A stretch of DNA of 64,000 bases, from the NCBI GenBank assembly GCA_021824345.1, contig JAKAKW010000002.1, forward strand, positions 86,552 through 150,551, written 5' to 3'. The position numbers were made by a program, and so were the translations under genes. Positions within the stretch are counted from its first letter, which is position 1. Each line of letters opens with the position of its first letter. Source of the stretch: a bacterium (GTDB lineage Bacteria; Patescibacteriota; Minisyncoccia; Phycocordibacterales; UBA9973). Below, in pieces: positions 32,085-63,026 of this stretch. The notes beneath the pieces were generated by a model. The model searched no databases. It was not told the origin of the DNA and saw only the letters and a program-made list of their open reading frames with translations.

Positions 32085-32223
32085 GCCGGGTAAATATTTG
32101 TCTTTGAGCGGGTTGTGTGGCCGAGCGGGCACGGTTCGAGCGTAGGCGAAAGAGCGAGGCCGAGCCCTCGAGCCGGCTCGCTGGGCCGGCGAGAAAAGCG
32201 AAGAGGCAGAATATTTACCCGGC
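32085..32223. repeat. Intergenic fold-back element E3
   Basis: Terminal IR GCCGGGTAAATATT...AATATTTACCCGGC around a GC-rich core containing TGGCCGAGC. Confidence 0.7.
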
Positions 32224-48095: not shown

Positions 48096-48213
48096 GTGGA
48101 ACCATGAGAACAATTTTTGTAGGGGGTTTCGAGCGCGGCGGCGCGAGAATTTCAGGGATTTTTTCAGCAGAAAAAATCCCGTACCCGGAAAAAATTTGTT
48201 CTCATGGTTCCAC
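48096..48213 (+). repeat. Intergenic fold-back element E1
   Basis: 18-bp perfect terminal IR GTGGAACCATGAGAACAA; core 48155-48187 identical to reverse complement of 58222-58254. Confidence 0.9.
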
Positions 48214-48222
48214 GTATTCATA

Positions 48223-48990
48223 ATGATTATTATCAAAACACCCGAGGAAATAGAAATAATGCGTGAAGGCGGGAAGCGCCTTGCGGAAGTGCTCAACAAG
48301 GTAAAAGCTAAAGTAAGGCCCGGAATTTCCACCAAAGAACTGGATGATTATGCCTTTAGGCTGGTAAAGGAGATGGGCGACCGGCCGGCATTTTTAAATT
48401 ATCAGGCCGATGGCGCGGGCAGACCGTATCCGGCCAGCTTGTGCGTTTCAGTGGAAGACGAGGTGGTGCACGGCATTCCAAAGACAGGCAGAATATTGAA
48501 AGAGGGGGACATAGTGTCTCTCGATTTCGGCATTGTGCACCGAGGTCTTTTCACCGATTCGGCGATTACTGTTCCAGTGGGTTCTATCAGTCCGGCCAAG
48601 GAAAAGCTTCTCCGGGCCACTGAAGAAGCCTTGTATGTTGGCATTGACGCTGCTCGTGGAGGAAAGAAAGTGGGAGATATAGGCTACGCCATTGAAAGCT
48701 TTGTGAAAACTTACAAATACGGAATTGTGGACATTCTTTCCGGCCACGGGGTGGGCAGGGAGCTGCATGAAGATCCGTATGTGCCCAATTTCGGCAGAAA
48801 AGGCACCGGCGAGCTTTTAAAACCCGGACAGACTCTAGCCATCGAGCCGATGCTGAATATGGGGGTAAAGGAAGTGATTTTTGACGATGACGGATGGACC
48901 TTTCGCACCGCGGACGGGAAACCATCCGCCCATTTTGAACATACTATTCTCATCACCGACGGCGATCCGGAAATTTTAACAAAAGCGTAG
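48223..48990 (+). CDS. map: Methionine aminopeptidase type I
   Basis: VVHGIP, GHGVG..LHEDP, AIEPM, SAHFEHT. Confidence 0.97.
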   Translation: MIIIKTPEEIEIMREGGKRLAEVLNKVKAKVRPGISTKELDDYAFRLVKEMGDRPAFLNYQADGAGRPYPASLCVSVEDEVVHGIPKTGRILKEGDIVSLDFGIVHRGLFTDSAITVPVGSISPAKEKLLRATEEALYVGIDAARGGKKVGDIGYAIESFVKTYKYGIVDILSGHGVGRELHEDPYVPNFGRKGTGELLKPGQTLAIEPMLNMGVKEVIFDDDGWTFRTADGKPSAHFEHTILITDGDPEILTKA

Positions 48991-49059
48991 GCATGCGGGG
49001 CCGTTGCCGTCAGAGCCTTTCCTTGTAGGCAGTCGTAACGTGTTATAATAAATCCAATC

Positions 49060-51831
49060 ATGGAAGAACTGTCCCTGAAAGAAATGCCTAAATTCAAGAC
49101 TCCGGAAGAGGAGCTCTCGTATCTGCGCGCTCAAGTGGCGAACAGAGAGAAAGCGCTAATAAATAGCGGGCACTTTGAACACGCAAACGAAAATGCCGCC
49201 CAAGACGTGCTTTCCGAATACAAGAAAATTCCGCTTGAAAAGGCGGTGCACAAAGACAGCGCCATTTCCAAGGAAGAAAAAGAAAACATCGTACTTTCGC
49301 TCAAGCCTGAAGCGCACGACTCCGTGATGGAGGAATTGCTCGGAGTAGTTTTGGAGAAAGGCATAAAAAACGCGCTTTCCGTGGTGGAAGCCATGAACAA
49401 TCCGCACATAGACGATGATTTTCATCGCGTGCTGATCCAATATTTAAAGACCGGCAATATTCCTTTTCCTTTCAAAGAGGGGGCTCCGCTGTACAAAGCT
49501 CTGCATATGACCTTATTTGAAATCACCTTGCCTCCTCCGGAAGATGAAGGCGGAAAAGAAAAGGGATTCAAGGAATTCATCGGCGCCATGGAGCAATTTT
49601 ATGCGGGTATGGCTTCCATTTCTCAGGGAAAAAACAACGAGTTTGGAAACTATTTCGTTCTGGAGGTGGCGCTCTCCGGCGACAGCGACGAGGTGGTGGT
49701 ATATGCCGCCGTACCGGACCAATTTCTTTCACTTTTTGAAAAACAGATTCTCGCTTACTATCACGCCGCCAAAGTGCGCGAAGTGAAAGACGATTACAAT
49801 ATTTTCAACGAGAAAGGAGTGGCGGTCGGCGCTTACGCGGAGCTTACCGAGAAAGCGGTCATGCCGCTTAAGACCTACGACAACATTGAACACGATCCCA
49901 TGAACACCATTCTGAACGTTTTTTCCAAGCTGGCCACTGTAGGCGAAGGCGCGGCTATCCAGATCGCGGTGGCTCCGGCCGGAGAGAAATACATAAACGA
50001 GTTCCATAAAATTTTAGACGACGTTAAAGGGGGCATGTCCGTGAAGCATGCCAACGACAATTTGTACAAATTCAACAAAGCTTTCCTTCGCATCTCGAAG
50101 GAAATTGTTTTTGGAACAAAGAATAATGAAAATGCCGGCGAAAACAAGGAATTGAGCGCTCCGGGCAGGAGAGCGGTAGACGAAGGAGCTGCGGAAAAGA
50201 TCGGGAACAAAATGAAATCCAGCATCATGAAGGCGAACATAAGAGTGCTGGCTTCCGCCCCCACCGAAATGCGCGCCAACTCCATCCTGCAGGAAATAGA
50301 ATCATCCTTTAACCAGTTCGCCGAGCCGGCCAGTAATTCCTTGTATTTCCGAAAATGTTCCGGCGGAAAGCTCAAACAGCTTTTTCATGATTTTTCCTAC
50401 CGCACGTTTTCAAAGGATGAGGCCCTTCCGTTAAACCTCAAAGAACTTTCTTCCATTTTTCATTTTCCGGTGGGTGTTGGGGCCATGCCCCAGCTTCGAG
50501 AGGCCAGATCCGGCATCGCTCCCGCTCCGATCCAAATGGGCAAGGAGGGCATACTGCTTGGCATAAACAGCTATCGGGGCAAAGACACGGAAGTGCGCAT
50601 GGGCAAGGAAGACCGCATGCGGCATTTCTATGTGATCGGACAAACCGGCACCGGAAAAACGAACGTGATGCTGAATATGATTACCCAAGATATAAAGAAC
50701 GGAGACGGAGTGTGCTATATAGACCCGCATGGCACGGACATCCAGACTATTCTCTCGCGCATTCCGAAGGAGCGGGTGGACGACGTGATCTACTTTGATC
50801 CTAGCTATATTGCCCGGCCCATGGGCTTGAACATGCTTGAGTATGATCCGAAATATCCCGAGCAGAAAACTTTCGTGGTGAACGAAATGATGAACATCTT
50901 TAACAAGCTTTTTGACATGAAAGTGGGAGGAGGACCTATGTTCGAGCAGTATTTCCGAAACTCGGCGTTTCTGGTGATGGAAGACCCCGATTCTGGTTCC
51001 ACTTTGCTTGAAATTACCCGTGTCTTGGCGGATAAGGATTTTCGGGATATGAAACTGGAACGCTGCAAGAATCCGATCATCAAGCAGTTCTGGGTTTCCG
51101 CTGAGCAGACCACCGGAGACCAATCTTTGGCCAACTTTGTTCCATATATTTCATCTAAGTTTGACAACTTCATTTCCAACGACATCATGCGTCCGGTGGT
51201 GCTTCAGCAAAATTCCGTTTTTAACTTTCGTAAAATAATGGACGAAAAAAAGATTCTCCTGGTGAATCTTTCAAAAGGGCGCTTGGGAGAGATAAACTCA
51301 AATTTGATCGGGCTGGTGCTGGCCGGCAAAATCCAGATGGCGGCCCTGTCCCGGGTGGACATGTTCGGCCAGAAGATGAACGACTTCTATCTTTATATTG
51401 ACGAATTCCAGAATGTTACCACCGATTCCATTTCCTCTATCCTTTCAGAGGCGCGGAAATACCGCCTGTCTCTTAATATCGCCCACCAGTACATAAATCA
51501 GCTGGAAGAGGGGATAAAGAACGCGGTATTTGGAAACGTCGGATCTATGGCGGTATTCCGAGTAGGCGCCGAGGATGCCCAATTCCTTGAACCGAAGTTC
51601 AAGCCGACTTTCAGCGCCCGCGACATCACCCGGTTGGAAAACTACAACGCTTACATGAATATGTTGATAAACGGAGAGCCTTCCAAGCCATTCAATATGA
51701 AGACTCTTCCGCCGGAAAAGGGCAATTCGGAGATAGTGCAGAGCCTAAAGGAGCTTTCGTACATGAAATACGGCCGGGATAGGGAAGAAGTGGAAAAAGA
51801 AATTATGGCCCGATACGAGTCAGCTCAGTAA
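49060..51831 (+). CDS. VirB4/TraD-like (HerA-FtsK superfamily) ATPase
   Basis: RHFYVIGQTGTGKT, YIDPHG, LYIDEFQN, LSEARKY, AHQYI.QL. Confidence 0.88.
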   Translation: MEELSLKEMPKFKTPEEELSYLRAQVANREKALINSGHFEHANENAAQDVLSEYKKIPLEKAVHKDSAISKEEKENIVLSLKPEAHDSVMEELLGVVLEKGIKNALSVVEAMNNPHIDDDFHRVLIQYLKTGNIPFPFKEGAPLYKALHMTLFEITLPPPEDEGGKEKGFKEFIGAMEQFYAGMASISQGKNNEFGNYFVLEVALSGDSDEVVVYAAVPDQFLSLFEKQILAYYHAAKVREVKDDYNIFNEKGVAVGAYAELTEKAVMPLKTYDNIEHDPMNTILNVFSKLATVGEGAAIQIAVAPAGEKYINEFHKILDDVKGGMSVKHANDNLYKFNKAFLRISKEIVFGTKNNENAGENKELSAPGRRAVDEGAAEKIGNKMKSSIMKANIRVLASAPTEMRANSILQEIESSFNQFAEPASNSLYFRKCSGGKLKQLFHDFSYRTFSKDEALPLNLKELSSIFHFPVGVGAMPQLREARSGIAPAPIQMGKEGILLGINSYRGKDTEVRMGKEDRMRHFYVIGQTGTGKTNVMLNMITQDIKNGDGVCYIDPHGTDIQTILSRIPKERVDDVIYFDPSYIARPMGLNMLEYDPKYPEQKTFVVNEMMNIFNKLFDMKVGGGPMFEQYFRNSAFLVMEDPDSGSTLLEITRVLADKDFRDMKLERCKNPIIKQFWVSAEQTTGDQSLANFVPYISSKFDNFISNDIMRPVVLQQNSVFNFRKIMDEKKILLVNLSKGRLGEINSNLIGLVLAGKIQMAALSRVDMFGQKMNDFYLYIDEFQNVTTDSISSILSEARKYRLSLNIAHQYINQLEEGIKNAVFGNVGSMAVFRVGAEDAQFLEPKFKPTFSARDITRLENYNAYMNMLINGEPSKPFNMKTLPPEKGNSEIVQSLKELSYMKYGRDREEVEKEIMARYESAQ

Positions 51832-51911
51832 ATTGCAAAAATGCTGTTTTTTTGGTAATATGTCTGTATTACAACCACAGCATCAGCTGTTTTTTATTTA
51901 TGAATTAAGAT

Positions 51912-52496
51912 ATGAAACACCCGAAAGAAGAAAAAACGTTTGTAATGGTTAAGCCGGACGGAGTACGCAAAGGCTTGATAGGCCAGGTAATCAGCCGTTT
52001 TGAACAGCGAGATCTGAAGATTGTGGCGCTTGAAATGTTCCAGCCCACCCATGAGCAGATTCATGATCATTATCCCAAGGACGAAGCTTGGATTACTCGC
52101 CTCGGAGAGAAAACCAAATCGACCTATGAAAAATACGGATATGACCTGATCGCCGATTTCAACACGGAAGACGCGGCCCAAATCGGCCCGGAAGTTAGAA
52201 CCTGGCTGGTTGACTACATGAAATCCGCGCCTTTAGTCAAAATGGTGGTGCAGGGCGTTCATGCAGTGGATATCGTGCGCAAGCTTGCGGGCGATACCCT
52301 TCCGTATCGTGCGGCCGTAGGTACTATTAGAGGGGATTTTTCCATTGATTCTCCGGTGCTTGCCAACAAAGAAAAAAGAGCGGTGGCGAATATAATCCAT
52401 TGTTCGGAAACTCCCGAAGAAGCGGAACACGAAATCCAACATTGGTTCGGGAAGGCAGTTTTGCACGAATACAAGCGCTTCGGAGTGGACGAATAG
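51912..52496 (+). CDS. ndk: Nucleoside diphosphate kinase
   Basis: TFVMVKPDGV, GTIRGDF, NIIHCS. Confidence 0.96.
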   Translation: MKHPKEEKTFVMVKPDGVRKGLIGQVISRFEQRDLKIVALEMFQPTHEQIHDHYPKDEAWITRLGEKTKSTYEKYGYDLIADFNTEDAAQIGPEVRTWLVDYMKSAPLVKMVVQGVHAVDIVRKLAGDTLPYRAAVGTIRGDFSIDSPVLANKEKRAVANIIHCSETPEEAEHEIQHWFGKAVLHEYKRFGVDE

Positions 52497-52517
52497 TCTC
52501 AAATTTTGCGTAATATG

Positions 52518-52557
52518 GCGGGCTGTGGAAAATTATTTCCACAGCCCGCCTTTTTTA
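52518..52557 (+). terminator. Intrinsic terminator after ndk
   Basis: GGCGGGCTGTGGAAA...TTTCCACAGCCCGCC plus T run. Confidence 0.85.
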
Positions 52558-52653
52558 TCTTGTATTTTAAGTTCAGCCCGGGTTGGGAATATTCAGAAAC
52601 AAAAAAACTTGCTCGTCCAGTTGCAAGTTCTTGCAGTTTGTCTATACTGAAAG

Positions 52654-52780
52654 TAGGGTTATTTTCAATTATTACCTAGTACACAATCTATAGGGAGCCT
52701 CGATCGCCCCTTGCTGTGGCATAGGGCGTCTGACACCCACGTGGCTATCAGGCTACGGTAATACATTGGAAATAACCCTA
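52654..52780 (+). ncRNA. Candidate structured ncRNA (rod-shaped, possibly 6S-like)
   Basis: TTGCAA-16nt-TATACT promoter, end-to-end pairing TAGGGTTATTT/AAATAACCCTA and TATTACC/GGTAATA, downstream hairpin plus T run. Confidence 0.55.
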
Positions 52781-52887
52781 AGAAAGAATCCGCATTTTAT
52801 CCCGCCCCGCGGGATTTTTTCTTTTTCCGGGAGTTTTTCCCTTTTTCCGTTATATATTTTCTCAAAATCGTTTATAATAATCTTAAT

Positions 52888-54252
52888 ATGCAAAATAAGG
52901 CAAAAATAACGTTCTGCGGGGGAGTAGGCGCCGTCACCGGCGCCAATTTCCTGCTTGAGGCGGACGGGAAAAAAATTCTTGTGGATTGCGGGCTGACGCA
53001 GTCGGAAAAGCTGGCAGACGAAACGAACTGGGCCCCTTTTCCTTATGACCCGAAAGAGATAGACATTCTTTTTGTCACTCATGCTCATATAGACCACGTG
53101 GGCCGGATTCCCAAGCTCATGAACGAGGGATTTCGCGGGCAGATTTTTTCCACTCCGCCCACCATGGATCTGGCCAAGCCCATGCTGGACGATACGGCCG
53201 GTATTCTGGACAAAAGCGACAAGTACGGCTTGGACAAAATATATTCCGAGGAAAACATAAAAAAATCTTTTTCCTTTTGGAAAGGAGCGGACTATCACGA
53301 AAAAATTCCGATTACGGACAATCTGGAAGCCGCCTTTTACAATGCCGGACACATTCTCGGTTCGGCTATGGTTCTTTTCACATACAATGGGAAAAAAATA
53401 ATGTTCACAGGGGATTTGGGCAACAGCCCGTCTCCTCTTTTGCCCGACACCGACAACGTGAAAGGCGTGGATTATCTGGTAATGGAAAGCGTATACGGCG
53501 ATCGGAATCATGAATCTCGGGAAGACCGCCGAAGGATGCTGGAGGAGGTGATTGAAGACAATTATCACCGCAAGGGTACTCTGGTCATACCGACTTTTTC
53601 CCTGGAACGCTCCCAAGAACTCCTGTTTGAGATGAACAATCTGGTGGAAGAAAACCACATACCCGAGATGCCCGTATTTTTGGACTCTCCGCTGGCCATA
53701 CGCTTGACGGAGGTTTTCCAGAAGTATAAGGGATATTTCAACGAGAATGCGCAGAAATTCATGATAGAAGACCCGAACCTTTTCAAATTCCCCGGATTGC
53801 GCTTCACTTTGAACGCGGAAGAGTCAAAAATGATAGACGAAACTTCCGGTCCGAAAATAATCATCGCGGGCAGCGGCATGTCAAGCGGAGGGCGAGTAGT
53901 GTACCACGAGCAGAAGTATCTTCCCGATCCGAACAACACTCTGTTGCTCATCGGCTATCAATCCGTGGGCACCCCGGGCAGGCTGATCCAGGAGGGCGTA
54001 AAAACGGTAAAAATAGCGGGGGAATACGTGCACATGCGGGCGCATTTGGCTTACATATACGGGTATTCCGGCCATAAGGATTCAGACCACCTGCTGGGCT
54101 TCATCCAGGATATGCGCGAATCGCTTAGAAAAGTGTTCGTGGTGATGGGGGAGCCGAAATCTTCCATGTTTCTGGTGCAAAAAATGCGGGATAATTTGGG
54201 AATTGAAGCATACGCGCCCGAACAAGGGGACAGCGCGACCTTGGATTGCTGA
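52888..54252 (+). CDS. MBL-fold beta-CASP ribonuclease
   Basis: THAHIDHVG, AGHILGS, FTGDLG, ESVYG, GSGMSSGGR, YSGH. Confidence 0.92.
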   Translation: MQNKAKITFCGGVGAVTGANFLLEADGKKILVDCGLTQSEKLADETNWAPFPYDPKEIDILFVTHAHIDHVGRIPKLMNEGFRGQIFSTPPTMDLAKPMLDDTAGILDKSDKYGLDKIYSEENIKKSFSFWKGADYHEKIPITDNLEAAFYNAGHILGSAMVLFTYNGKKIMFTGDLGNSPSPLLPDTDNVKGVDYLVMESVYGDRNHESREDRRRMLEEVIEDNYHRKGTLVIPTFSLERSQELLFEMNNLVEENHIPEMPVFLDSPLAIRLTEVFQKYKGYFNENAQKFMIEDPNLFKFPGLRFTLNAEESKMIDETSGPKIIIAGSGMSSGGRVVYHEQKYLPDPNNTLLLIGYQSVGTPGRLIQEGVKTVKIAGEYVHMRAHLAYIYGYSGHKDSDHLLGFIQDMRESLRKVFVVMGEPKSSMFLVQKMRDNLGIEAYAPEQGDSATLDC

Positions 54253-54254
54253 GC

Positions 54255-54412
54255 AAAGCGGCGGTCATGGCAGCGCTTCTCAAAAGCACGCATAAAACTC
54301 TGCTGAGTTTTTGCTCTGCTCGTCGCTCAAGGGAATCATAGCCGGAGTACCGGCTTGATTCCCTAAGCTCCTGCGCAAGGCTTTTCTCAAAGTCTGCCAT
54401 GACCGCCACTTT
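54255..54412. repeat. Intergenic fold-back element E4
   Basis: Terminal IR GGCGGTCATGGCAG/CTGCCATGACCGCC with internal hairpins AAAACTC-TGCT-GAGTTTT and GGGAATCA...TGATTCCC. Confidence 0.75.
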
Positions 54413-54444
54413 TAGAAAACATTCATATTGTGTATAATTAGCGC

Positions 54445-55056
54445 ATGCAAAACAATCCGGAAGAGAATTTATTCCAGAAACACGGGCATGACCAGATAAA
54501 AATCTGCGTTTCGGGCGCGGCGGAGACGGGGCATTGCGGAATGGGAGCGCTGGAAAAGGCCAAAGAGCTTGGCAAAGAGATAGTGCGGCAAGGGGCGATA
54601 TTGGTCACCGGCGCCACCACCGGCTTTCCTTTCTGGTCTGCCATGGGCGCCAAAGAGGCGGGCGGAATATCCGTCGGATTTTCTCCGGCTTCCACGGAAA
54701 GAGAGCATGCCGAAGTTTATAAGCTTCCGCTGGATTACATGGATATGATCGTATATACCGGCTTCGGCTATCCCGGGCGGGACCTCCTTCTTACCCGATC
54801 CGTGGACGCTGTGATCTGTGGCTGCGGACGCATCGGCACCATCCACGAATTCACCGTGGCTTTTGAAGACGGCAAGGTGATAGGAATTTACGAAGGGCCC
54901 TGGGACATGGGAGACGAACTTAAAGAGATTTTGGAAAAAAGCCACCGGCCGAACGCGAAAGTAGTGGCCGGAAGCGACCCCAAAAAACTGGTGGCGGACG
55001 TAATCGCCCTGGTAAAGGAAATGAAGCTCAAGGAGTACAACGTGGTGAACGTCTAG
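54445..55056 (+). CDS. LOG/SLOG family protein
   Basis: LVTGATTG, GFSPA, GRIGTIHEF. Confidence 0.8.
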   Translation: MQNNPEENLFQKHGHDQIKICVSGAAETGHCGMGALEKAKELGKEIVRQGAILVTGATTGFPFWSAMGAKEAGGISVGFSPASTEREHAEVYKLPLDYMDMIVYTGFGYPGRDLLLTRSVDAVICGCGRIGTIHEFTVAFEDGKVIGIYEGPWDMGDELKEILEKSHRPNAKVVAGSDPKKLVADVIALVKEMKLKEYNVVNV

Positions 55057-55583
55057 CCTCTTCCATATAAAACAGTCTTAAGCTCAGGGTATTTTTTAAA
55101 GTTAAGATCGGCGAAAAATTCTTCCCTGTTATCGTAAAAAAATATTTCCTCGCCGGGGTTCTTCTCGCATATCTCCTCGACGGCCTTTTTTTTACTGTTC
55201 GGCACTATTATTATTTCTTTAAATAAAGGAGCGACGCAGCTCAGGTTTATCTTGTCTTCCTGAAACTTCTTATCTCCGTTCGTCACCAGATAGCAGTTTT
55301 CTTTTCCCGCCCGGCGCGCTTTTTCCGCCATTTCCTCGTTTATCAATTCCGGACATTTTTCCATTATTTCTTCATAAAGCCGTTCAATCGAGCCGGGTTC
55401 TCCGCCGCGGAAAATTTTTCGTAAAAAATTTTTCAAGGAAAATTCGCTTGCTCTATCGCCTTTATATAAATCTTCCGCTTCGGGACGAGGAATCCCGGCT
55501 TCTTCTATGCGTGAAAACATCCAGTCTTTGAACTCGGGGGTATTTTTGAAAAGCACGTCGTCAAAATCCAAAATCAATTTCAT
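55053..55583 (-). CDS. HAD-superfamily hydrolase-like protein
   Basis: ILDFDDVLF, LVTNGD..FQ..K, FYDN. Confidence 0.75.
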   Translation of the reverse strand: MKLILDFDDVLFKNTPEFKDWMFSRIEEAGIPRPEAEDLYKGDRASEFSLKNFLRKIFRGGEPGSIERLYEEIMEKCPELINEEMAEKARRAGKENCYLVTNGDKKFQEDKINLSCVAPLFKEIIIVPNSKKKAVEEICEKNPGEEIFFYDNREEFFADLNFKKYPELKTVLYGRG

Positions 55584-56575
55584 CTTTTCTTCTTGATTAT
55601 TTCCTCCACGCACTTGGCGATCTTTTGCGAATCATGGCGGATGAAGCTTCTAAATTTCTGCCGCGAATCATTTTTGTCGTATTTTACCAGTACATGGGAA
55701 ATCAAAGGTCTGCGAACGGCTCGGGAATCTGAAAGATCATCCTTCACCAGAACACCGTCTCCTTCCTTGAGCTTATATCGGCGGACCTGCGCCGGAGAAG
55801 GGGACTGGCTGTTAATTAATATTATGTCTATGGGACGGCCGAGATACTTTTCGGTGTTTTTAACGTAGTCGCTCGCTTTCCAATGAAGAGTATGCCCCTT
55901 CTTGTTTGTCAGGTTTACCGGCAAAATAATTTTTGCCTTGGTCCTGCCAATGGCTTCCTTGAAGCCGGGAACGATCAGATTGGGCACCAGAGATTCAAAA
56001 TAAGTGCCCGGGCCTATGATGATGTAATCAGCGCGCAAAATGGCTTTCTTTGCGTTCGGATTCAATTGAACCCTGGAAGAAAAATAAATTTTTTTCAATC
56101 CTCTCTTTTGAAAATTCGCTTTGTCTACTTCTATCTGCCCGCAGATGGAATGGCCGTCGCCGAGCTGAGCGCATAAATCAGTCTTGTTCTTGGTGACTGG
56201 CACGACCATGCCTTTTACTTTCAGTATTTCCGAGGCCACTTCAACCCCTTTGCCGAAATCGCCGGTGACCTTTTCCAGAGTTGCCAAGAGAATATTGCCG
56301 AAACTGTGGCTTTTCAGCTTTCCGTCGTCAAAACGGTAGTTCATCATTTTGCGCACCGTGTCCGTGTGCTCGGAAAGGGCCACCAAGCATTGGCGCACAT
56401 CCCCCGGCGGCAGCACGCCCAATTCGTCCCGAAGGATGCGGGTGGACCCTCCATTGTCCGCCATGGATACAACAGCCGTGAGGGAAACATCCTTCAGGTT
56501 TTTCAGCCCCGAAAGGACGGTATAGCTTCCCGTTCCGCCCCCTACGGTCACTATGTTTTTTATTTTTAGCGGCAT
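55580..56575 (-). CDS. YvcK/GlmR (CofD-related) family protein
   Basis: GGGTG, DNGGSTRILRDELGVLPPGDVR, HSFGN, IGPG, RHD. Confidence 0.92.
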   Translation of the reverse strand: MPLKIKNIVTVGGGTGSYTVLSGLKNLKDVSLTAVVSMADNGGSTRILRDELGVLPPGDVRQCLVALSEHTDTVRKMMNYRFDDGKLKSHSFGNILLATLEKVTGDFGKGVEVASEILKVKGMVVPVTKNKTDLCAQLGDGHSICGQIEVDKANFQKRGLKKIYFSSRVQLNPNAKKAILRADYIIIGPGTYFESLVPNLIVPGFKEAIGRTKAKIILPVNLTNKKGHTLHWKASDYVKNTEKYLGRPIDIILINSQSPSPAQVRRYKLKEGDGVLVKDDLSDSRAVRRPLISHVLVKYDKNDSRQKFRSFIRHDSQKIAKCVEEIIKKKR

Positions 56576-56623
56576 GTCAAATGAATCAGCCGCTCCGGCC
56601 TTATGGCCGGAGCGGCTGACCGA

Positions 56624-56968
56624 TTACTTTACGCTCTTGAGAATTCTGGCGAAAGTCTCCGGATTGTTTTCCGAAAGATCCGCGAGAATTTTTCTATCCA
56701 GCATTATTTTCTTCTTTGAGAGAGCACCGATCAGCTTGGAATAGCTCATTCCGCTTTGTCTGGAACCGGCGTTTATCTTGATATTCCAAAGCTTCCGATT
56801 AAAAGATTTCTTGTCTTTTCGGTGAGCGAAAGCATAAGCCCCGGCGTGCAAAAGCGCGTCCTTGGCCATTCTTTCTTTCTTGCTGCGGCCGTGGCGGAAG
56901 CCTTTGGCCTGTTTAAGCACGCTTCTCCTTCTTTTTAGGGCGTGCACTCCTTTTTTTACTCTGGTCAT
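56624..56968 (-). CDS. rplT: 50S ribosomal protein L20
   Basis: MTRVKKG, RKLWNIKINA, LDRKILADL. Confidence 0.97.
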   Translation of the reverse strand: MTRVKKGVHALKRRRSVLKQAKGFRHGRSKKERMAKDALLHAGAYAFAHRKDKKSFNRKLWNIKINAGSRQSGMSYSKLIGALSKKKIMLDRKILADLSENNPETFARILKSVK

Positions 56969-57003
56969 GCTTGTTTATTAAAAAATTATGTTCGGCCGTC
57001 TAT

Positions 57004-57189
57004 CTAATTGAAGGGCAGGAGGTGGCTCTTGTCCTTGTTTTTAATTTTGAATTCACTGCCTTTCCGTCCCGAAAGTTGTACAGTGCGGGATTGCTTTGCA
57101 TTGAAATGATTGAAGCCGGGCTTTCGAGCGATTATCTTGCCCTTTTTTGTCAGTTTCAATCTCTTTGTGTACGATTTATTGGTTTTCAT
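57004..57189 (-). CDS. rpmI: 50S ribosomal protein L35
   Basis: MKTNKSYTKRLKLTKKGKI...NH; between infC and rplT. Confidence 0.93.
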   Translation of the reverse strand: MKTNKSYTKRLKLTKKGKIIARKPGFNHFNAKQSRTVQLSGRKGSEFKIKNKDKSHLLPFN

Positions 57190-57699
57190 TTATTTTGCCT
57201 TTTCTATGGTAACGGCCAAACCCTTTGGACCCTTTTTATACGGATCCGATATCTTGTAATTTTCAGTAATAAGGTGCAGAACTCGGTCTAGACGTTCTCG
57301 GAGGAATCCTTCCTCCATATATTTAGATCTGCCCGTCAAGAACAGTTCTATTTTTATCCTATGCCCTTCCGCAAGCCACTTGGAAGCGGTTTTCGCTTTA
57401 AGGGCAAGGTCGTGTTCGCCGGTGCCTATCTTTACCTGTATTGACTTCGTTTCGCTGGGCTTTCCACCGCCCTGCTTCATCTTTTTCTGCTTCTTGCTGG
57501 CTTCGTATTGATACCTGCCGTAGTCCATTATTTTGGCTACCGGCGGTACCGCATTGGGTGATATTTCAATCAAATCCAGGCCTTTTTCCTCGGCTGCCTT
57601 CAGGGCGTCTTTAAAGCTCAAAACGCCTAGATTGCCGCCCTGGTCGTCTATTACCCGGAGCTCTTTGGCCCTTATTTGATTGTTTATTCTTTCCCGCAA
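57190..57699 (-). CDS. infC: Translation initiation factor IF-3 (non-AUG start, TTG)
   Basis: RINNQIRA..LRVI, LDLIEI..PPVAKIMDYG. Confidence 0.95.
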   Translation of the reverse strand: MRERINNQIRAKELRVIDDQGGNLGVLSFKDALKAAEEKGLDLIEISPNAVPPVAKIMDYGRYQYEASKKQKKMKQGGGKPSETKSIQVKIGTGEHDLALKAKTASKWLAEGHRIKIELFLTGRSKYMEEGFLRERLDRVLHLITENYKISDPYKKGPKGLAVTIEKAK

Positions 57700-57788
57700 G
57701 AGCTGTACATTAAAATTCCCTCAAAGGGGAATTAGTATTGCCAAGTCTAGCGTATTTGGGAAGGAAAGTCAATTGTAATAAAATCATG

Positions 57789-58184
57789 TGGAGATGGGGG
57801 AAATCGAATCCCCGTGCAAGAGGCTGCGGAAGGAAGGTCTACATGCTTAGCGCGCTTTTTGATTTGAGCCGGCGGATTCTTAAGCGAGCCAAATATCCGC
57901 GAGCCGATTCCTTAAGGTTTGGAGAGAGACCAGGAAAAATCTCTTCCTATCCCGATAATGTTACACCTCGCCCAATCTATCGGAAGTTGAAAGGGGAGAC
58001 GCCGGCGTTCTTAAGCGAAAGCCGGAGCGAAAGCGAAGTCCTTCGCACCGAAGTACGGAGAGACCATTGCCATCACCTTGGAAGTCAATTTTGCAATTAA
58101 CTGTTTGGGCGAAGTTTTGCGAGTTTACGCCCATTCTCGGCATGCATTCGGGCCGCCGGCCTATTGTCTATGCCTGGCATCCCC
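57789..58184 (-). ncRNA. ssrA: tmRNA
   Basis: Acceptor GGGGATG/CATCTCC-A with G3.U, TTCGA T-loop, tag frame 58094-58011 AKLTSKVMAMVSPYFGAKDFAFAPAFA*, downstream of smpB. Confidence 0.92.
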
Positions 58185-58197
58185 ATGCTTGTGGCGT

Positions 58198-58331
58198 CGA
58201 GGGTTTTGGTATGTTCTTTTACGGGTACGGGATTTTTTCTGCTGAAAAAATCCCCGAAGTTGGCTCGCCGCCGCCTGCCTGCCGGCAGGCAGGCTCGCCA
58301 AACCTCCTCCAAAAACATACCAAAACCCTCG
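58198..58331 (-). repeat. Intergenic fold-back element E2 with nested 22-bp palindrome
   Basis: 18-bp terminal IR CGAGGGTTTTGGTATGTT; 33-nt core shared with E1; GCCTGCCTGCCGGCAGGCAGGC at 58273-58294. Confidence 0.9.
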
Positions 58332-58831: not shown

Positions 58832-58947
58832 AAGCCGGAGAAGATATAAATTTATGCGATGGTTTGGCCGAGCTTCCAGCTCCGCAGGAGCAAAATTTTG
58901 GCGAGGAGAGCCGAGGACCTCGCGGAAATTTATATCTTTTCCGGCTT
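58832..58947. repeat. Intergenic fold-back element E5 between divergent smpB and ftsH promoters
   Basis: 22-bp IR AAGCCGGAGAAGATATAAATTT/AAATTTATATCTTTTCCGGCTT (one G.T); core begins GGTTTGGCCGAGC. Confidence 0.8.
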
Positions 58948-58988
58948 CTTTAATTTCATTCGGGGCGTTTTCATGCTATACTCGCAGA

Positions 58989-61900
58989 ATGGATTTCAAT
59001 CTTAGAAACAGCCAGGAGCCGAAAATGAAAGGAAAAAAACCTCCGGAAAGAGGTCCTGGTTTTGCTGGCAGCATCGCCTCGGTGATTCTTATCTTTATGA
59101 TAATCACCGCCATATATCTTTTGATTTCGGACGCTTCCCAGCCGGTTCCCGCCATTCCCATTTCCCAGGTTGCGGAAGATGTTTCTTCCGGCGCGGTGCA
59201 AAAGATAGAAGTGCAGGGGAACGATCTTACGGTCACTTACAAGGACAAGGAAGTGAAAAAATCAAAGAAAGAGACGGAAACTTCCTTAACCGACACTCTG
59301 TCAAACTACGGAGTGAGCAAGCAGGTGCTTGACGCCACCGAGATAGACATTCAAGAACCGGACGGATTCGGGTACTGGGCGATAAACATTCTGCCGTATC
59401 TTCTGCCCATTATCTTCATCGTGATTTTCTTCTGGTACATTTCCCGGCAGGTTAAAGGGGCCGGCATGCAGGCGTTCACCTTCGGCCAGTCCAAGGCGCG
59501 CATTACCGATCCTTCCGACAAGAACAATCGCATCACTTTCAAAGACGTGGCCGGATGCAAAGAAGCGAAAGAAGAACTGAAGGAAATTGTGGATTTTTTG
59601 AAAAACCCCAAAAAGTTCCTGGATATCGGAGCGCGCATACCCAAAGGAGTGATTCTTACGGGAGCGCCCGGAACCGGCAAGTGCGTCAATGGCGATACAT
59701 TGATACAAACATCCAAAGGCCTTGTTGCAATAGAAGATGTGCCGAAATACTTTTCAGTAAATTCAGATAATACAGTGGAAGGGTTAAGAGTGATAACTAT
59801 TGACCCGAAGAACGGGACTTTAAAAACCACGGATGCTTCGCATTGGTATTCTTTAGGGGAGCAAGAAACTGTTGCCATAAAGACGGAATCGGGAATGTTT
59901 TTGGAAGGTACGCCGGAACACCCTATCATCGTAGTTGATAAAGATACAGGCCATTTTGTTTTCAAAAAATTAGCTGATATAACAACCGACGACTGGTGCG
60001 TGGTGGGCTCCCGGACGGAGGTATTCGGAACGCATACAAAAATTCCAGGCCCGGAAACCGCTTATATACTTGGTGTTTTGACGGGTGACGGATGCATGAC
60101 CATTAAAGGCAGAATAGTTCTTTCCACTATTGATAAAGAGATTTTGAGCCGGGTGCAAGATAATGTTAAGAGATTGTTCGGCGAGGAGTTTTCAAAAATT
60201 TCCGCCCATAAATGCGATTATCAGCTTTCAAATAGCAAGGCAAAGAATGCGTTATTGTCTTTTGGACTTTCAGAAACATACGCGAAAAATAAGAGGATTC
60301 TTGAGTGGGTTCGTTTTGCTCCCAAAGAGCACATAAGCAATTTCCTGCAAGGATTGTTTGATACCGATGGCACGGTTGAAAAGAGCGGAAGCGTAAGTTT
60401 GTCCAGCGCCAGCGAACACTTAATAAGAGAAGTGCAATTTATGCTTCTTAATCTCGGCATAGTGACCAGAAGGTATGAGCGCCAGAAGAAATACAACAAT
60501 CAACTCCAATACTACATTGTTATTTATGGAGATTTTGTGCAGTCTTTTCAGAACCAAATAGGGTTTTCAGTTGTCAGGAAAAAAGAAAGATTGGAAAAAA
60601 TTTGCCTCAAACAGCGAAATACAAATGTAAATGTCATACCTTCGCAAGGCAAGTCTATTCACATGGTCTGGAAACAGGCGGTAGCCACCTCAGGAATGGT
60701 TTTTAATAGGGAATTTTATAATCAATCTATTTATAAAAATTTCAAACGATACGTTTCGGGAGAACGGATGCCTTCCCTTAAAGGGATGTCAATATTTCTC
60801 GAAGGAACATCTCGCATTTCACCGTATATAAACGAAATGCCCGAGGTGGCGCATTTGAAAAGCTTGTCTTCCGGTAATTTTTTCTTTAGTAAAATTGATT
60901 CCATTAGCCGAGGCAGGAACAAAGTATATGATCTTACTGTACCGGTAACCCATAATTTTTTGGCCAATGGATTTTTTAATCATAACACCATGCTGGCCAG
61001 GGCCATCGCGGGCGAAGCGAGCGTGCCCTTCTACCATCTTTCCGGTTCGGAATTCGTGGAAATGTTCGTGGGCGTGGGCGCCAGCCGGGTGCGGGATCTT
61101 TTCCGGGTGGCCAAGAAATCCGCTCCGGCCATAATATTCATTGATGAAATTGACGCCATCGGCAGAACCCGCGGAGGGGGATTCGGAGGAAGCAATGACG
61201 AACGCGAGCAGACCTTGAACCAAATTCTGGTGGAAATGGACGGCTTCGAGCCGAACGAGAAGCTGATCGTGATTGCGGCCACCAACCGGCCGGATGTTCT
61301 TGACCCTGCCTTAATACGTCCCGGACGCTTTGACCGCAAAGTGGTGCTGGATCTTCCGGATCGCAACGACCGCGAAGAAATTCTGAAAATTCACGCCCAG
61401 AAAAAGCCCTTGGCGGAAGATGTGAATCTGCATCTTGTCGCCGAGCGTACCCCGGGCTTTTCCGGCGCCGATCTTTACTCTTTAATGAATGAAGGCGCCA
61501 TTCTGGCCGCCCGGGAAAACCGCAAAAAAGTGTTCCAATTTGACCTGATCCGGGCGATTGAAAAAGTAATGCTGGGTCCGGAACGCAAAAGCCACCTGCT
61601 TTCCAAGAAAGAAAAAGAAATTACCGCCTATCATGAAGCCGGGCACGCTATCGTGGCCTCGGTATTGCCTCACGCGGATCCGGTGCACAAAGTTTCCATA
61701 ATCGCCCGCGGACGCGCCGGGGGATATACGCTTAAGCTTCCTCTGGAAGAACGTCGATTGCAATCTCGGAAAGAATTCATTGACGATATCGCCATGTCGC
61801 TCGGAGGATATGCCGCGGAAAAAATGATGTTTGGGGATATTACTACCGGACCGTCCAGCGATCTGCAGATGGCCACGAACCTAGCCCGGGCCATGGTCAC

Positions 61901-62219
61901 TCGCTTCGGCATGTCCGACAGCATCGGCCCGGTCACCTGGGCGGAAGGAGAAGGAAAGCCGGGCTGGGGAGAACTTCGGGAAGATTCCCGTTCGGAAAGC
62001 GTGGCCGCGAAGATTGACGATGAAGTTTCCAGAATCGTGAATGATGGCATAAAAACGGCGCAAAAAGTGCTGAAGGATCACAAGAAAGCCTTCACTGCCA
62101 TTGCCAAGAAGCTTATCGAAGTGGAAACTTTGGAACGGGACGAATATGAAAAAATTCTCATCGCCCACGGCATAGAGCTGAAAAAGAAGGACGAGCCGGA
62201 GGTGGTCATAGAAGGCTAA
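58989..62219 (+). CDS. ftsH: ATP-dependent zinc metalloprotease FtsH, intein-containing
   Basis: Two TM, FKDVAG, GAPGTGK-[intein]-TMLARA, FIDEID, SRH ATNRPD, HEAGH. Confidence 0.96.
59682..60986 (+). mobile_element. Intein with LAGLIDADG homing endonuclease (435 aa)
   Basis: Starts CVNGDT, block B GTPEHP, LAGLIDADG helices [10 protein letters not shown] and [10 protein letters not shown], ends [18 protein letters not shown] followed by Thr. Confidence 0.95.
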
Positions 62220-62949: not shown

Positions 62950-63023
62950 CCGCCCGTAGCTCAGTTGGTAGAGCAAGCGACTTATACTCGCTGTTAGCCT
63001 TGGTTCGAGTCCAAGCGGGCGGA
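62950..63023 (+). tRNA. tRNA-Ile(TAT)
   Basis: Acceptor CCGCCCG/CGGGCGG-A, D arm GCTC/GAGC, anticodon arm AGCGA-CTTATAC-TCGCT, TTCGA T-loop. Confidence 0.9.
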
Positions 63024-63026
63024 CAA

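Follow-up and report, generated by a model that had tools for sequence, protein, structure and literature searches.

Mobile DNA is normally recognised by conserved ends. REPINs, as described in PMC3116915, conserve two terminal repetitive extragenic palindromic (REP) sequences, vary in the spacer and adjoin a cognate REP-associated tyrosine transposase (RAYT), and among the bacterial miniature inverted-repeat transposable elements (MITEs) treated in PMC3184786, bcr1 is said to keep a cruciform-like fold through compensatory change. Template switching is reported to homogenise the arms of quasi-palindromes and to invert spacers (PMC5941160, PMC8604942, PMC10710096). Here we characterised two intergenic elements, E1 and E2, in a window of 64,000 nucleotides (contig JAKAKW010000002.1, positions 86,552 to 150,551, assembly GCA_021824345.1) of a bacterium of the Patescibacteriota, whose genome (G000) is 833 kb and 99.97% complete. 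We found that they belong to a family which keeps its middle, whereas its ends drift, flip and borrow from the flank, and which, in bacteria whose genomes are among the smallest, can reach about 40 matches in a single genome.

E1 (48096..48213, plus strand; repeat search and folding, matched by our covariance model R1 at E = 1e-20) occupies the pyrH-map spacer, starting 1 nt past the pyrH stop codon and ending 9 nt short of map. On one strand the family is predicted to fold into a three-way junction (Y) of a closing stem P1 and two hairpins, P2 and P3. In E1, all on the plus strand, the 5' arm of P1 (48096..48118) is perfectly paired over 18 bp as far as 48113 and continues as a T tract, P2 (48128..48149) has a 3-bp stem, a tandem GA/GA internal loop, a 4-bp stem and a GNCG loop, and P3 (48155..48180), with an A/T-tract stem and an AGCA loop, forms the first 26 nt of a 33-nt core. 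The conserved junction (48181..48187), GTAC and inner P1 pairs, consists of near-invariant columns of alignment A1 (64 of 113 candidate copies, the basis of R1), and the outer part of the 3' arm (48189..48213) matches a sequence that G332, the closest relative, has once at this site. E2 (58198..58331, minus strand; R1 match at E = 7e-10) lies between smpB and the tmRNA gene, its end 13 nt from the start of the tmRNA model, and has on the minus strand perfect 18-bp arms (5' arm 58314..58331, 3' arm 58198..58215) and its own copy of the core, P3 plus junction (58222..58254). It is longer than E1 because a 20-nt palindrome of another family (58274..58293, assigned to neither strand) is inserted in the tip of its P2; in G000 all three exact-pattern copies of this palindrome, which is known only from tips of other hairpins, lie in such positions, the other two in REP-like palindromes at C10:79834 and C7:37825. 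The original prediction had named an identical 33-nt core (48155-48187 plus, 58222-58254 minus), perfect 18-bp terminal inverted repeats unrelated between E1 and E2, and similar upstream sequence; core and repeats are present as described, and the upstream similarity proved to be a second conserved hairpin, P2. The closing stems moreover extend inward through T/A tracts to about 23-26 bp in all, and folding z-scores of the tandem-GA strand are -9.6 (E1) and -10.2 (E2), with none of 200 shuffles folding equally well.

The whole of G000 holds nine copies of the family, not two. Their cores have a mean identity of 84% (maximum 98%), and the outer 20 nt of their arms are at shuffle level (0.32 vs 0.29 shuffled). 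Matches of R1 to the family or to sister families were present in 131 of the 149 relatives in the genus, 917 in all with those of G000 included, in a tally which scored at most 23 candidates per genome and included the unpublished genomes G083, G146 and G154. Matches per genome within the genus ranged from 0 to 38 (highest full counts 38, 36 and 28), 18 of 150 genus genomes being without one. At the level of the order 34 of 149 genomes had matches, and in a draw across the phylum 1 of 149. The weaker matches include sister families, in which the P2 hairpin and the layout are kept and the junction sequences differ. A pattern scan of named genomes gave at least 123 stretches, and among the 80 inspected, true copies occurred in records titled Nomurabacteria, Paceibacterota, Parcubacteria, Patescibacteria, Yanofsky-, Vogel- and Yonathbacteria, in some records labelled uncultured Saccharibacteria and in one uncultured bacterium, the remainder being chance matches in which the P2 hairpin was absent. 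In metagenomes, a pattern tuned to the G000 subtype had no matches and a broader pattern at least 125. Viral contigs were rejected as carriers, as none of their four matches had the P2 hairpin. No described Rfam family matched E1 or E2 at gathering and E-value thresholds, the Rfam scan of the window yielding only tRNA and tmRNA, with a miRNA precursor as the best E1 match (28 bits vs a cut-off of 83). No paper on the family was found among titles and the openings of abstracts, a search which did not reach the supplement of PMC5737381, in which a motif absent from Rfam may be described. E1 and E2 are copies of a real, widespread and apparently undescribed structured repeat family.

The closing stem covaries, as one of the two original interpretations had proposed. 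In a structure-blind alignment 35 of 42 pairs showed double changes, and the covariation score was 0.412 against 0.155 in shuffled alignments and at most 0.219 with slid partners, a score favoured by the naming of the structure from the same sequences. P1 reaches 21-31 nt from the core (10th-90th percentile, 153 copies), P2 is a hairpin of constant length in which the tandem GA loop has room to shift by 2 bp, and GTAC follows the A/T-tract hairpin P3. The fold is strand-specific: among arm mismatches read on the GA strand of 100 copies, G.U outnumbered A.C (52 vs 20) and purine-purine outnumbered pyrimidine-pyrimidine (60 vs 7), and unpaired extra arm bases in these copies fell mostly in the 3' arm (90 vs 33), clustering 8-11 nt from the junction. 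These mismatch and bulge biases fit RNA and single-stranded DNA alike. A hammerhead-like reading of the opposite strand was rejected by eye, since the GAAA it needs varies and is paired on the other strand.

Gain and loss at orthologous spacers indicate that the family is mobile, as had been suspected. The map region was recovered from 90 of 143 matching genomes, 72 of which have pyrH upstream; 41 of these pyrH-map spacers were empty (17 nt or less), 11 held an element of the E1 family or a sister family (2 in E1's orientation, 9 opposite), 13 other repeats, 5 genes, 1 a remnant and 1 an artefact. In G332 (map 85% identical) the E1 site has another palindrome and no core, and the E2 site a sister-family element; the E2 site holds the E1/E2 family reversed in G334 and G356, and in E2's orientation in L139 and L381. 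The aligned DNA of genomes G155 and G151 is 81% identical; G155 has 38 matches and G151 has 4. A quick map tree with weak support served only for picking close pairs. Flanking direct repeats of at least 6 nt accompany 5.9% of 153 copies against 4.0% in the null, so that no target duplication above chance was seen, and no junction of an excised or flipped E1 was found in four DNA runs from one study, which were available as contigs with rare variants dropped.

The arms behave differently from the core. Over 72 same-site, same-orientation pairs, which are not independent, the core was 93%, the outer arms 55% and the flanks 75% identical, so that the reversal of the MITE pattern noted originally, with the core kept and the termini varying, holds. 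Among 15 short sister spacers in G151 (10 for the E1/E2 family, 5 for sister families), 8 showed neither arm, a further 4 gave weak matches, a single arm was present in 2, and the last had the pair as a hairpin. Copies at different loci carry identical arms (L082, L100, L113 and L190; L429 and L436); much of the stem therefore travels with the element. Other arm sequence is copied from the flank. At 18 of 98 arm ends (8 and 10 on the two sides), at least 5 coding bases are paired, compared with 2.4% when gene ends were swapped, a count in which some stops are possibly supplied by the arm and a few cases are the same site twice. By local alignment the pyrH end (7-12 nt) lies within the stem at 5 of 11 filled sites, 4 of them clean, and here the direction from flank to arm is clear because 26 of 41 relatives with an empty spacer natively have the Ile-Ser-stop end that is paired; L133 compared with L387 is a further case. 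The E1 site of G332 has 14 of 15 nt of the E1 3' arm as a single copy (shuffle p 0.0002; 24, where the best of 24 other spacers scored 16); the palindrome present there does not usually have such a tail, and the match may be the native target or a remnant. A third genomic copy of the arms, as guide or donor, was rejected for G000, as the best outside matches (11-13 nt) were at chance level. Further, G155 and G151 share 3 sites, and at 2 of these the core is reversed in place between like arms, the P2 and P3 variants differing at one of them. At G155 C1:167869, the last codons of two convergent genes form both stem arms; the G151 ortholog lacks the core, and there the two genes end as perfect inverted copies.

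Other hairpins of these genomes are extended in a similar manner. Perfect inverted extensions of at least 3 bp past the A/T tracts of terminator-like hairpins were present in 24 of 42 cases in G000, 13 of 38 in G155 and 15 of 38 in G151, against 5-8% in swap nulls and 0 of 15 in 200 kb of E. coli (one small control), and the REP-like palindromes of G000 have longer extensions than with swapped flanks. Such private extensions of terminators suggest a lineage-wide hairpin-perfecting process, and we infer that template switching acts here on arms and terminators.

On balance we lean towards a gene-less family of about 120 nt which moves as a single-stranded unit with the help of an enzyme, its closing stem being rewritten at each site by template switching. 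A copy would arrive with its stem in a short spacer beside a stop codon. There the replisome would copy by fold-back, uncorrected by MutS, which was not found in G000, and in this way would keep the drifting arms matched, extend them a few bases into the flank and sometimes flip the core. The core would stay alike across copies because it would be the module that is recognised, with selection preserving it and, probably, copies exchanging it. Inside-out conservation would then, somewhat more probably than otherwise, reflect a stem which the element brings with it and whose arms are rewritten together at each site.

Several observations weigh against this explanation. No enzyme gene adjoins about 100 copies, and no gene is bounded by half-elements in G000, G151 or G155. 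The association of Y1 genes with copy number is weak and not significant (p 0.06), 6 of 21 high-copy genomes being without Y1, and copy number is lower where a reverse transcriptase is present (p 0.013, uncorrected for kinship), 6 of the 21 high-copy genomes having one. Opposite-orientation pairs over all distances share arms like random pairs (0.46 vs 0.435, p 0.15, n = 43), so that the evidence of core flipping is limited to the close pair G155/G151. The candidate sharing of arms between G332 and G000 at two sites failed our ranking test and was rejected, as the G000 arms from the matching site ranked 2 and 5 of 9 in similarity to those of G332. Longer terminator stems could also be caused by selection for RNA 3'-end protection through paired 3' ends, and the spacer inversions described in PMC8604942 span just 2-5 bp, far below the length of the E1/E2-family core. 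Moreover, p values are overstated throughout because copies and genomes are related.

The gene context bears on an explanation which we regard as unlikely, and which is partly compatible with the one above, namely that certain spacers need a strong stem-loop in the transcript for termination, 3'-end protection or RNase III processing, that any repeat family can supply it, and that selection at the site keeps stem and core. Spacers filled in G155 hold unrelated DUF559-type or family-C repeats in G151 at 7 of 20 sites, compared with 10 of 305 others (p 1e-5), and the E1 and E2 sites both carry other hairpin families in G332; convergent spacers are in excess, accounting for 7 of 20 filled spacers and 20 of 325 overall, the stem length of 21-31 nt would suit such a role and an RNase III gene is present. 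Among 132 copies, however, 46 are antisense, 35 convergent, 27 sense and 24 divergent, so that the structured strand is more often antisense than sense and can flip, and the core sequence and the strand-specific GA loops are kept anyway. The sense orientation noted originally thus stands for E1 (pyrH-map) and E2 (smpB-ssrA) and fails as a rule of the family. In addition, the same pyrH-map spacer is empty in 41 of 72 relatives, 18 genomes do without a match altogether, and slot sharing is expected too if few spacers tolerate insertions. The median distance between the core and the nearest stop codon is 27 nt (132 copies), which puts the stop at the stem's outer end; the shortness of native spacers (median 28 nt) can explain this. 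The neighbours are mostly housekeeping genes, with no recurring nuclease or transposase.

Quite unlikely, in our judgement, is a mobile unit consisting of the core only, which would enter the tip of an existing hairpin or make a full inverted copy of about 20 nt of the target, the arms being target DNA. This develops the original idea that insertion inverts local sequence, for which one arm was expected at empty sites, and such arms do occur: the single E1 arm at the G332 site, two G151 spacers with one arm and one with both as a hairpin, together with the 18 paired arm ends. In G332 the arms around one sister-family core resemble the REP-type palindrome of the same G000 site, and nesting of one element within another was found several times. 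On the other side, the 8 armless spacers, the merely weak matches in 4 more and the identical arms at different loci contradict it, and the empty pyrH-map spacers are shorter than an arm. The leftover arms are better read as deletion remnants because the inner-arm signature of the family is present in them. Full inverted target duplication is therefore not the rule, and only part of the original idea survives; this explanation and the preceding one are not fully exclusive.

A REPIN- or PATE-like element moved by a Y1 HUH transposase (RAYT or TnpA) is, we consider, improbable. Y1 genes occur in 107 of 150 genus genomes, and the strand-specific hairpins, the lack of target duplication and the size of about 100-120 nt would agree with it. 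Conservation is, however, inside-out relative to REPINs, there is no clear link to copy number, and palindromes of another kind, peculiar to them, flank the four Y1-type genes examined in G151 and G155. In 6 of 9 and 19 of 27 cases the structured strand coincides with the C-rich one, which by skew rules is not the lagging-strand template. The RAYT or IS200-type HUH enzyme proposed for a search was not found in G000, and the earlier statement that no mobilising enzyme is evident holds for the E1/E2 family: no Y1_Tnp, reverse transcriptase or DUF559 was found in G000, whose proteome was not scanned whole, and tblastn of relatives' small GIY-YIG, Y1, DUF559 and four-helix proteins against G000 gave no match. 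The single GIY-YIG match in G000 lies within a 474-aa frame, which is probably UvrC. By comparison, the palindromes bounding DUF559 genes, whose gene-less versions fill spacers, number 42 half-sites in G151 and are lacking in G155 and G000, and since DUF559-type and Y1-flanking repeats bound cognate genes, those families have visible movers and the E1/E2 family is without one. Palindrome-bounded DUF559 genes lie in G151 at L270:13747-14082, L291:4494-4841 and L310:18271-18654, two REP-like palindrome families (29 and 29 copies) persist in G000 although no Y1 transposase was found there, and at G000 C3:96966-97599 a 214-aa ORF, which by its motif resembles a LAGLIDADG endonuclease, is enclosed by a 19-bp inverted repeat. 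A small RNA retroposed by a reverse transcriptase in trans is scarcely credible, for although RNA-like motifs (tandem GA, G.U bias) and reverse transcriptases in 67 of 150 genus genomes speak for it, there is none in G000, copy number is lower where one occurs, few high-copy genomes have one, and target duplication is lacking.

More tentatively, and with considerably more doubt than belief, we suggest that the Y-shaped cores form a superfamily without sequence-defined ends or a transposase of its own, which would spread by copying into, or swapping between, hairpin-bearing spacers through fold-back copying, a lineage-wide activity of Parcubacteria replication which would create a private closing stem at each site and preserve it. 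If so, mobility would be defined by structure and not by terminal sequence. The family itself points to a mover and to a strong hairpin-perfecting mutational process in Parcubacteria, which would also mark terminators and sometimes pair with the last codons of genes.

In addition to the E1/E2 family, at least four further core families (B, C, D and E) were observed, each with a conserved core and a private closing stem, and families D and E have the tandem-GA/GNCG hairpin in common with the E1/E2 family. The window holds a family B element (32085..32223, plus strand) and a family C element (58841..58938, plus strand), each with a conserved core and its own closing stem, and a sister-family E element of the same anatomy with another core and its own closing stem (54260..54407, minus strand). 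Further positions of families B to E are C3:10413, C4:52247, C13:6041, C2:35393, C4:92053, C6:10337, C13:43235 and C14:7830. At G155 C1:116296-116421 (L321) a sister-family element is apparently inserted in frame (net 117 nt) within coding sequence, the sister genome being empty. Among other features of the window are the tmRNA (57786-58184; Rfam match of 112 bits, missed by ARAGORN), a tRNA-Ile with the unusual anticodon TAT (62950-63024), an ftsH-like gene (58854-62219) with an insert of about 440 aa resembling inteins or intein endonucleases in PDB (best E 2.5e-8), and a 923-aa ATPase-like gene downstream of map (49060-51831).

The closest known systems include REPINs and MITEs. REP-RAYT systems, in the account of PMC3116915, are likewise extragenic, hairpin-forming, non-autonomous repeats of about 100 nt with compensatory changes, nesting and lone remnants. 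In the E1/E2 family the extragenic hairpin with compensatory change is present, whereas the termini vary and conserved end palindromes are absent, a three-way junction forms the conserved core and the search for a cognate enzyme was negative: the repeat flanks none of the four Y1-type genes of G151 and G155, and G000 yielded no such gene. Bacterial MITEs such as ERIC/IRU, Correia and bcr1 are described in PMC3184786 as less than 200 nt long, gene-less, patchy between relatives and foldable, and our family is short, gene-less and multi-copy with empty orthologous sites; it differs in having no family-wide terminal repeat, as arm conservation stops at the subfamily, in flanking direct repeats that do not exceed chance, in outer arms that are partly flank copies, and in an invertible core. 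The DUF559/Y1 cassette palindromes are also gene-less hairpin repeats in the same spacers with single-lineage expansions, but they have conserved ends and a visible cognate gene bounded by the repeat, and the E1/E2 family has neither. Integron attC sites, whose traits we give from general knowledge, resemble the family in variable sequence, a conserved single-strand fold, a one-sided bulge and a position just past stop codons; the family differs in its branched conserved core and in occurring in both orientations, as single copies among housekeeping genes in all four gene contexts, without co-oriented arrays of accessory cassettes. No reverse transcriptase, as in retrons and other retroelements, was found in G000 or next to about 100 copies. 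Compared with an invertible switch (inverton), the flips are seen between species and the arms are not fixed in sequence, the population data consisting of contigs only. Template-switch (quasi-palindrome) mutation, as reported in the three papers cited at the outset, offers one-step arm homogenisation, stem creation and spacer inversion; it is a mutational process and not an element, and here it would act on a mobile family and on terminators, with an inverted spacer of 60-80 nt. The E1/E2 family thus departs from REPINs and MITEs in the features that define them, its termini, target duplication and cognate enzyme, and is REPIN/MITE-like in being gene-less, dispersed and patchy.

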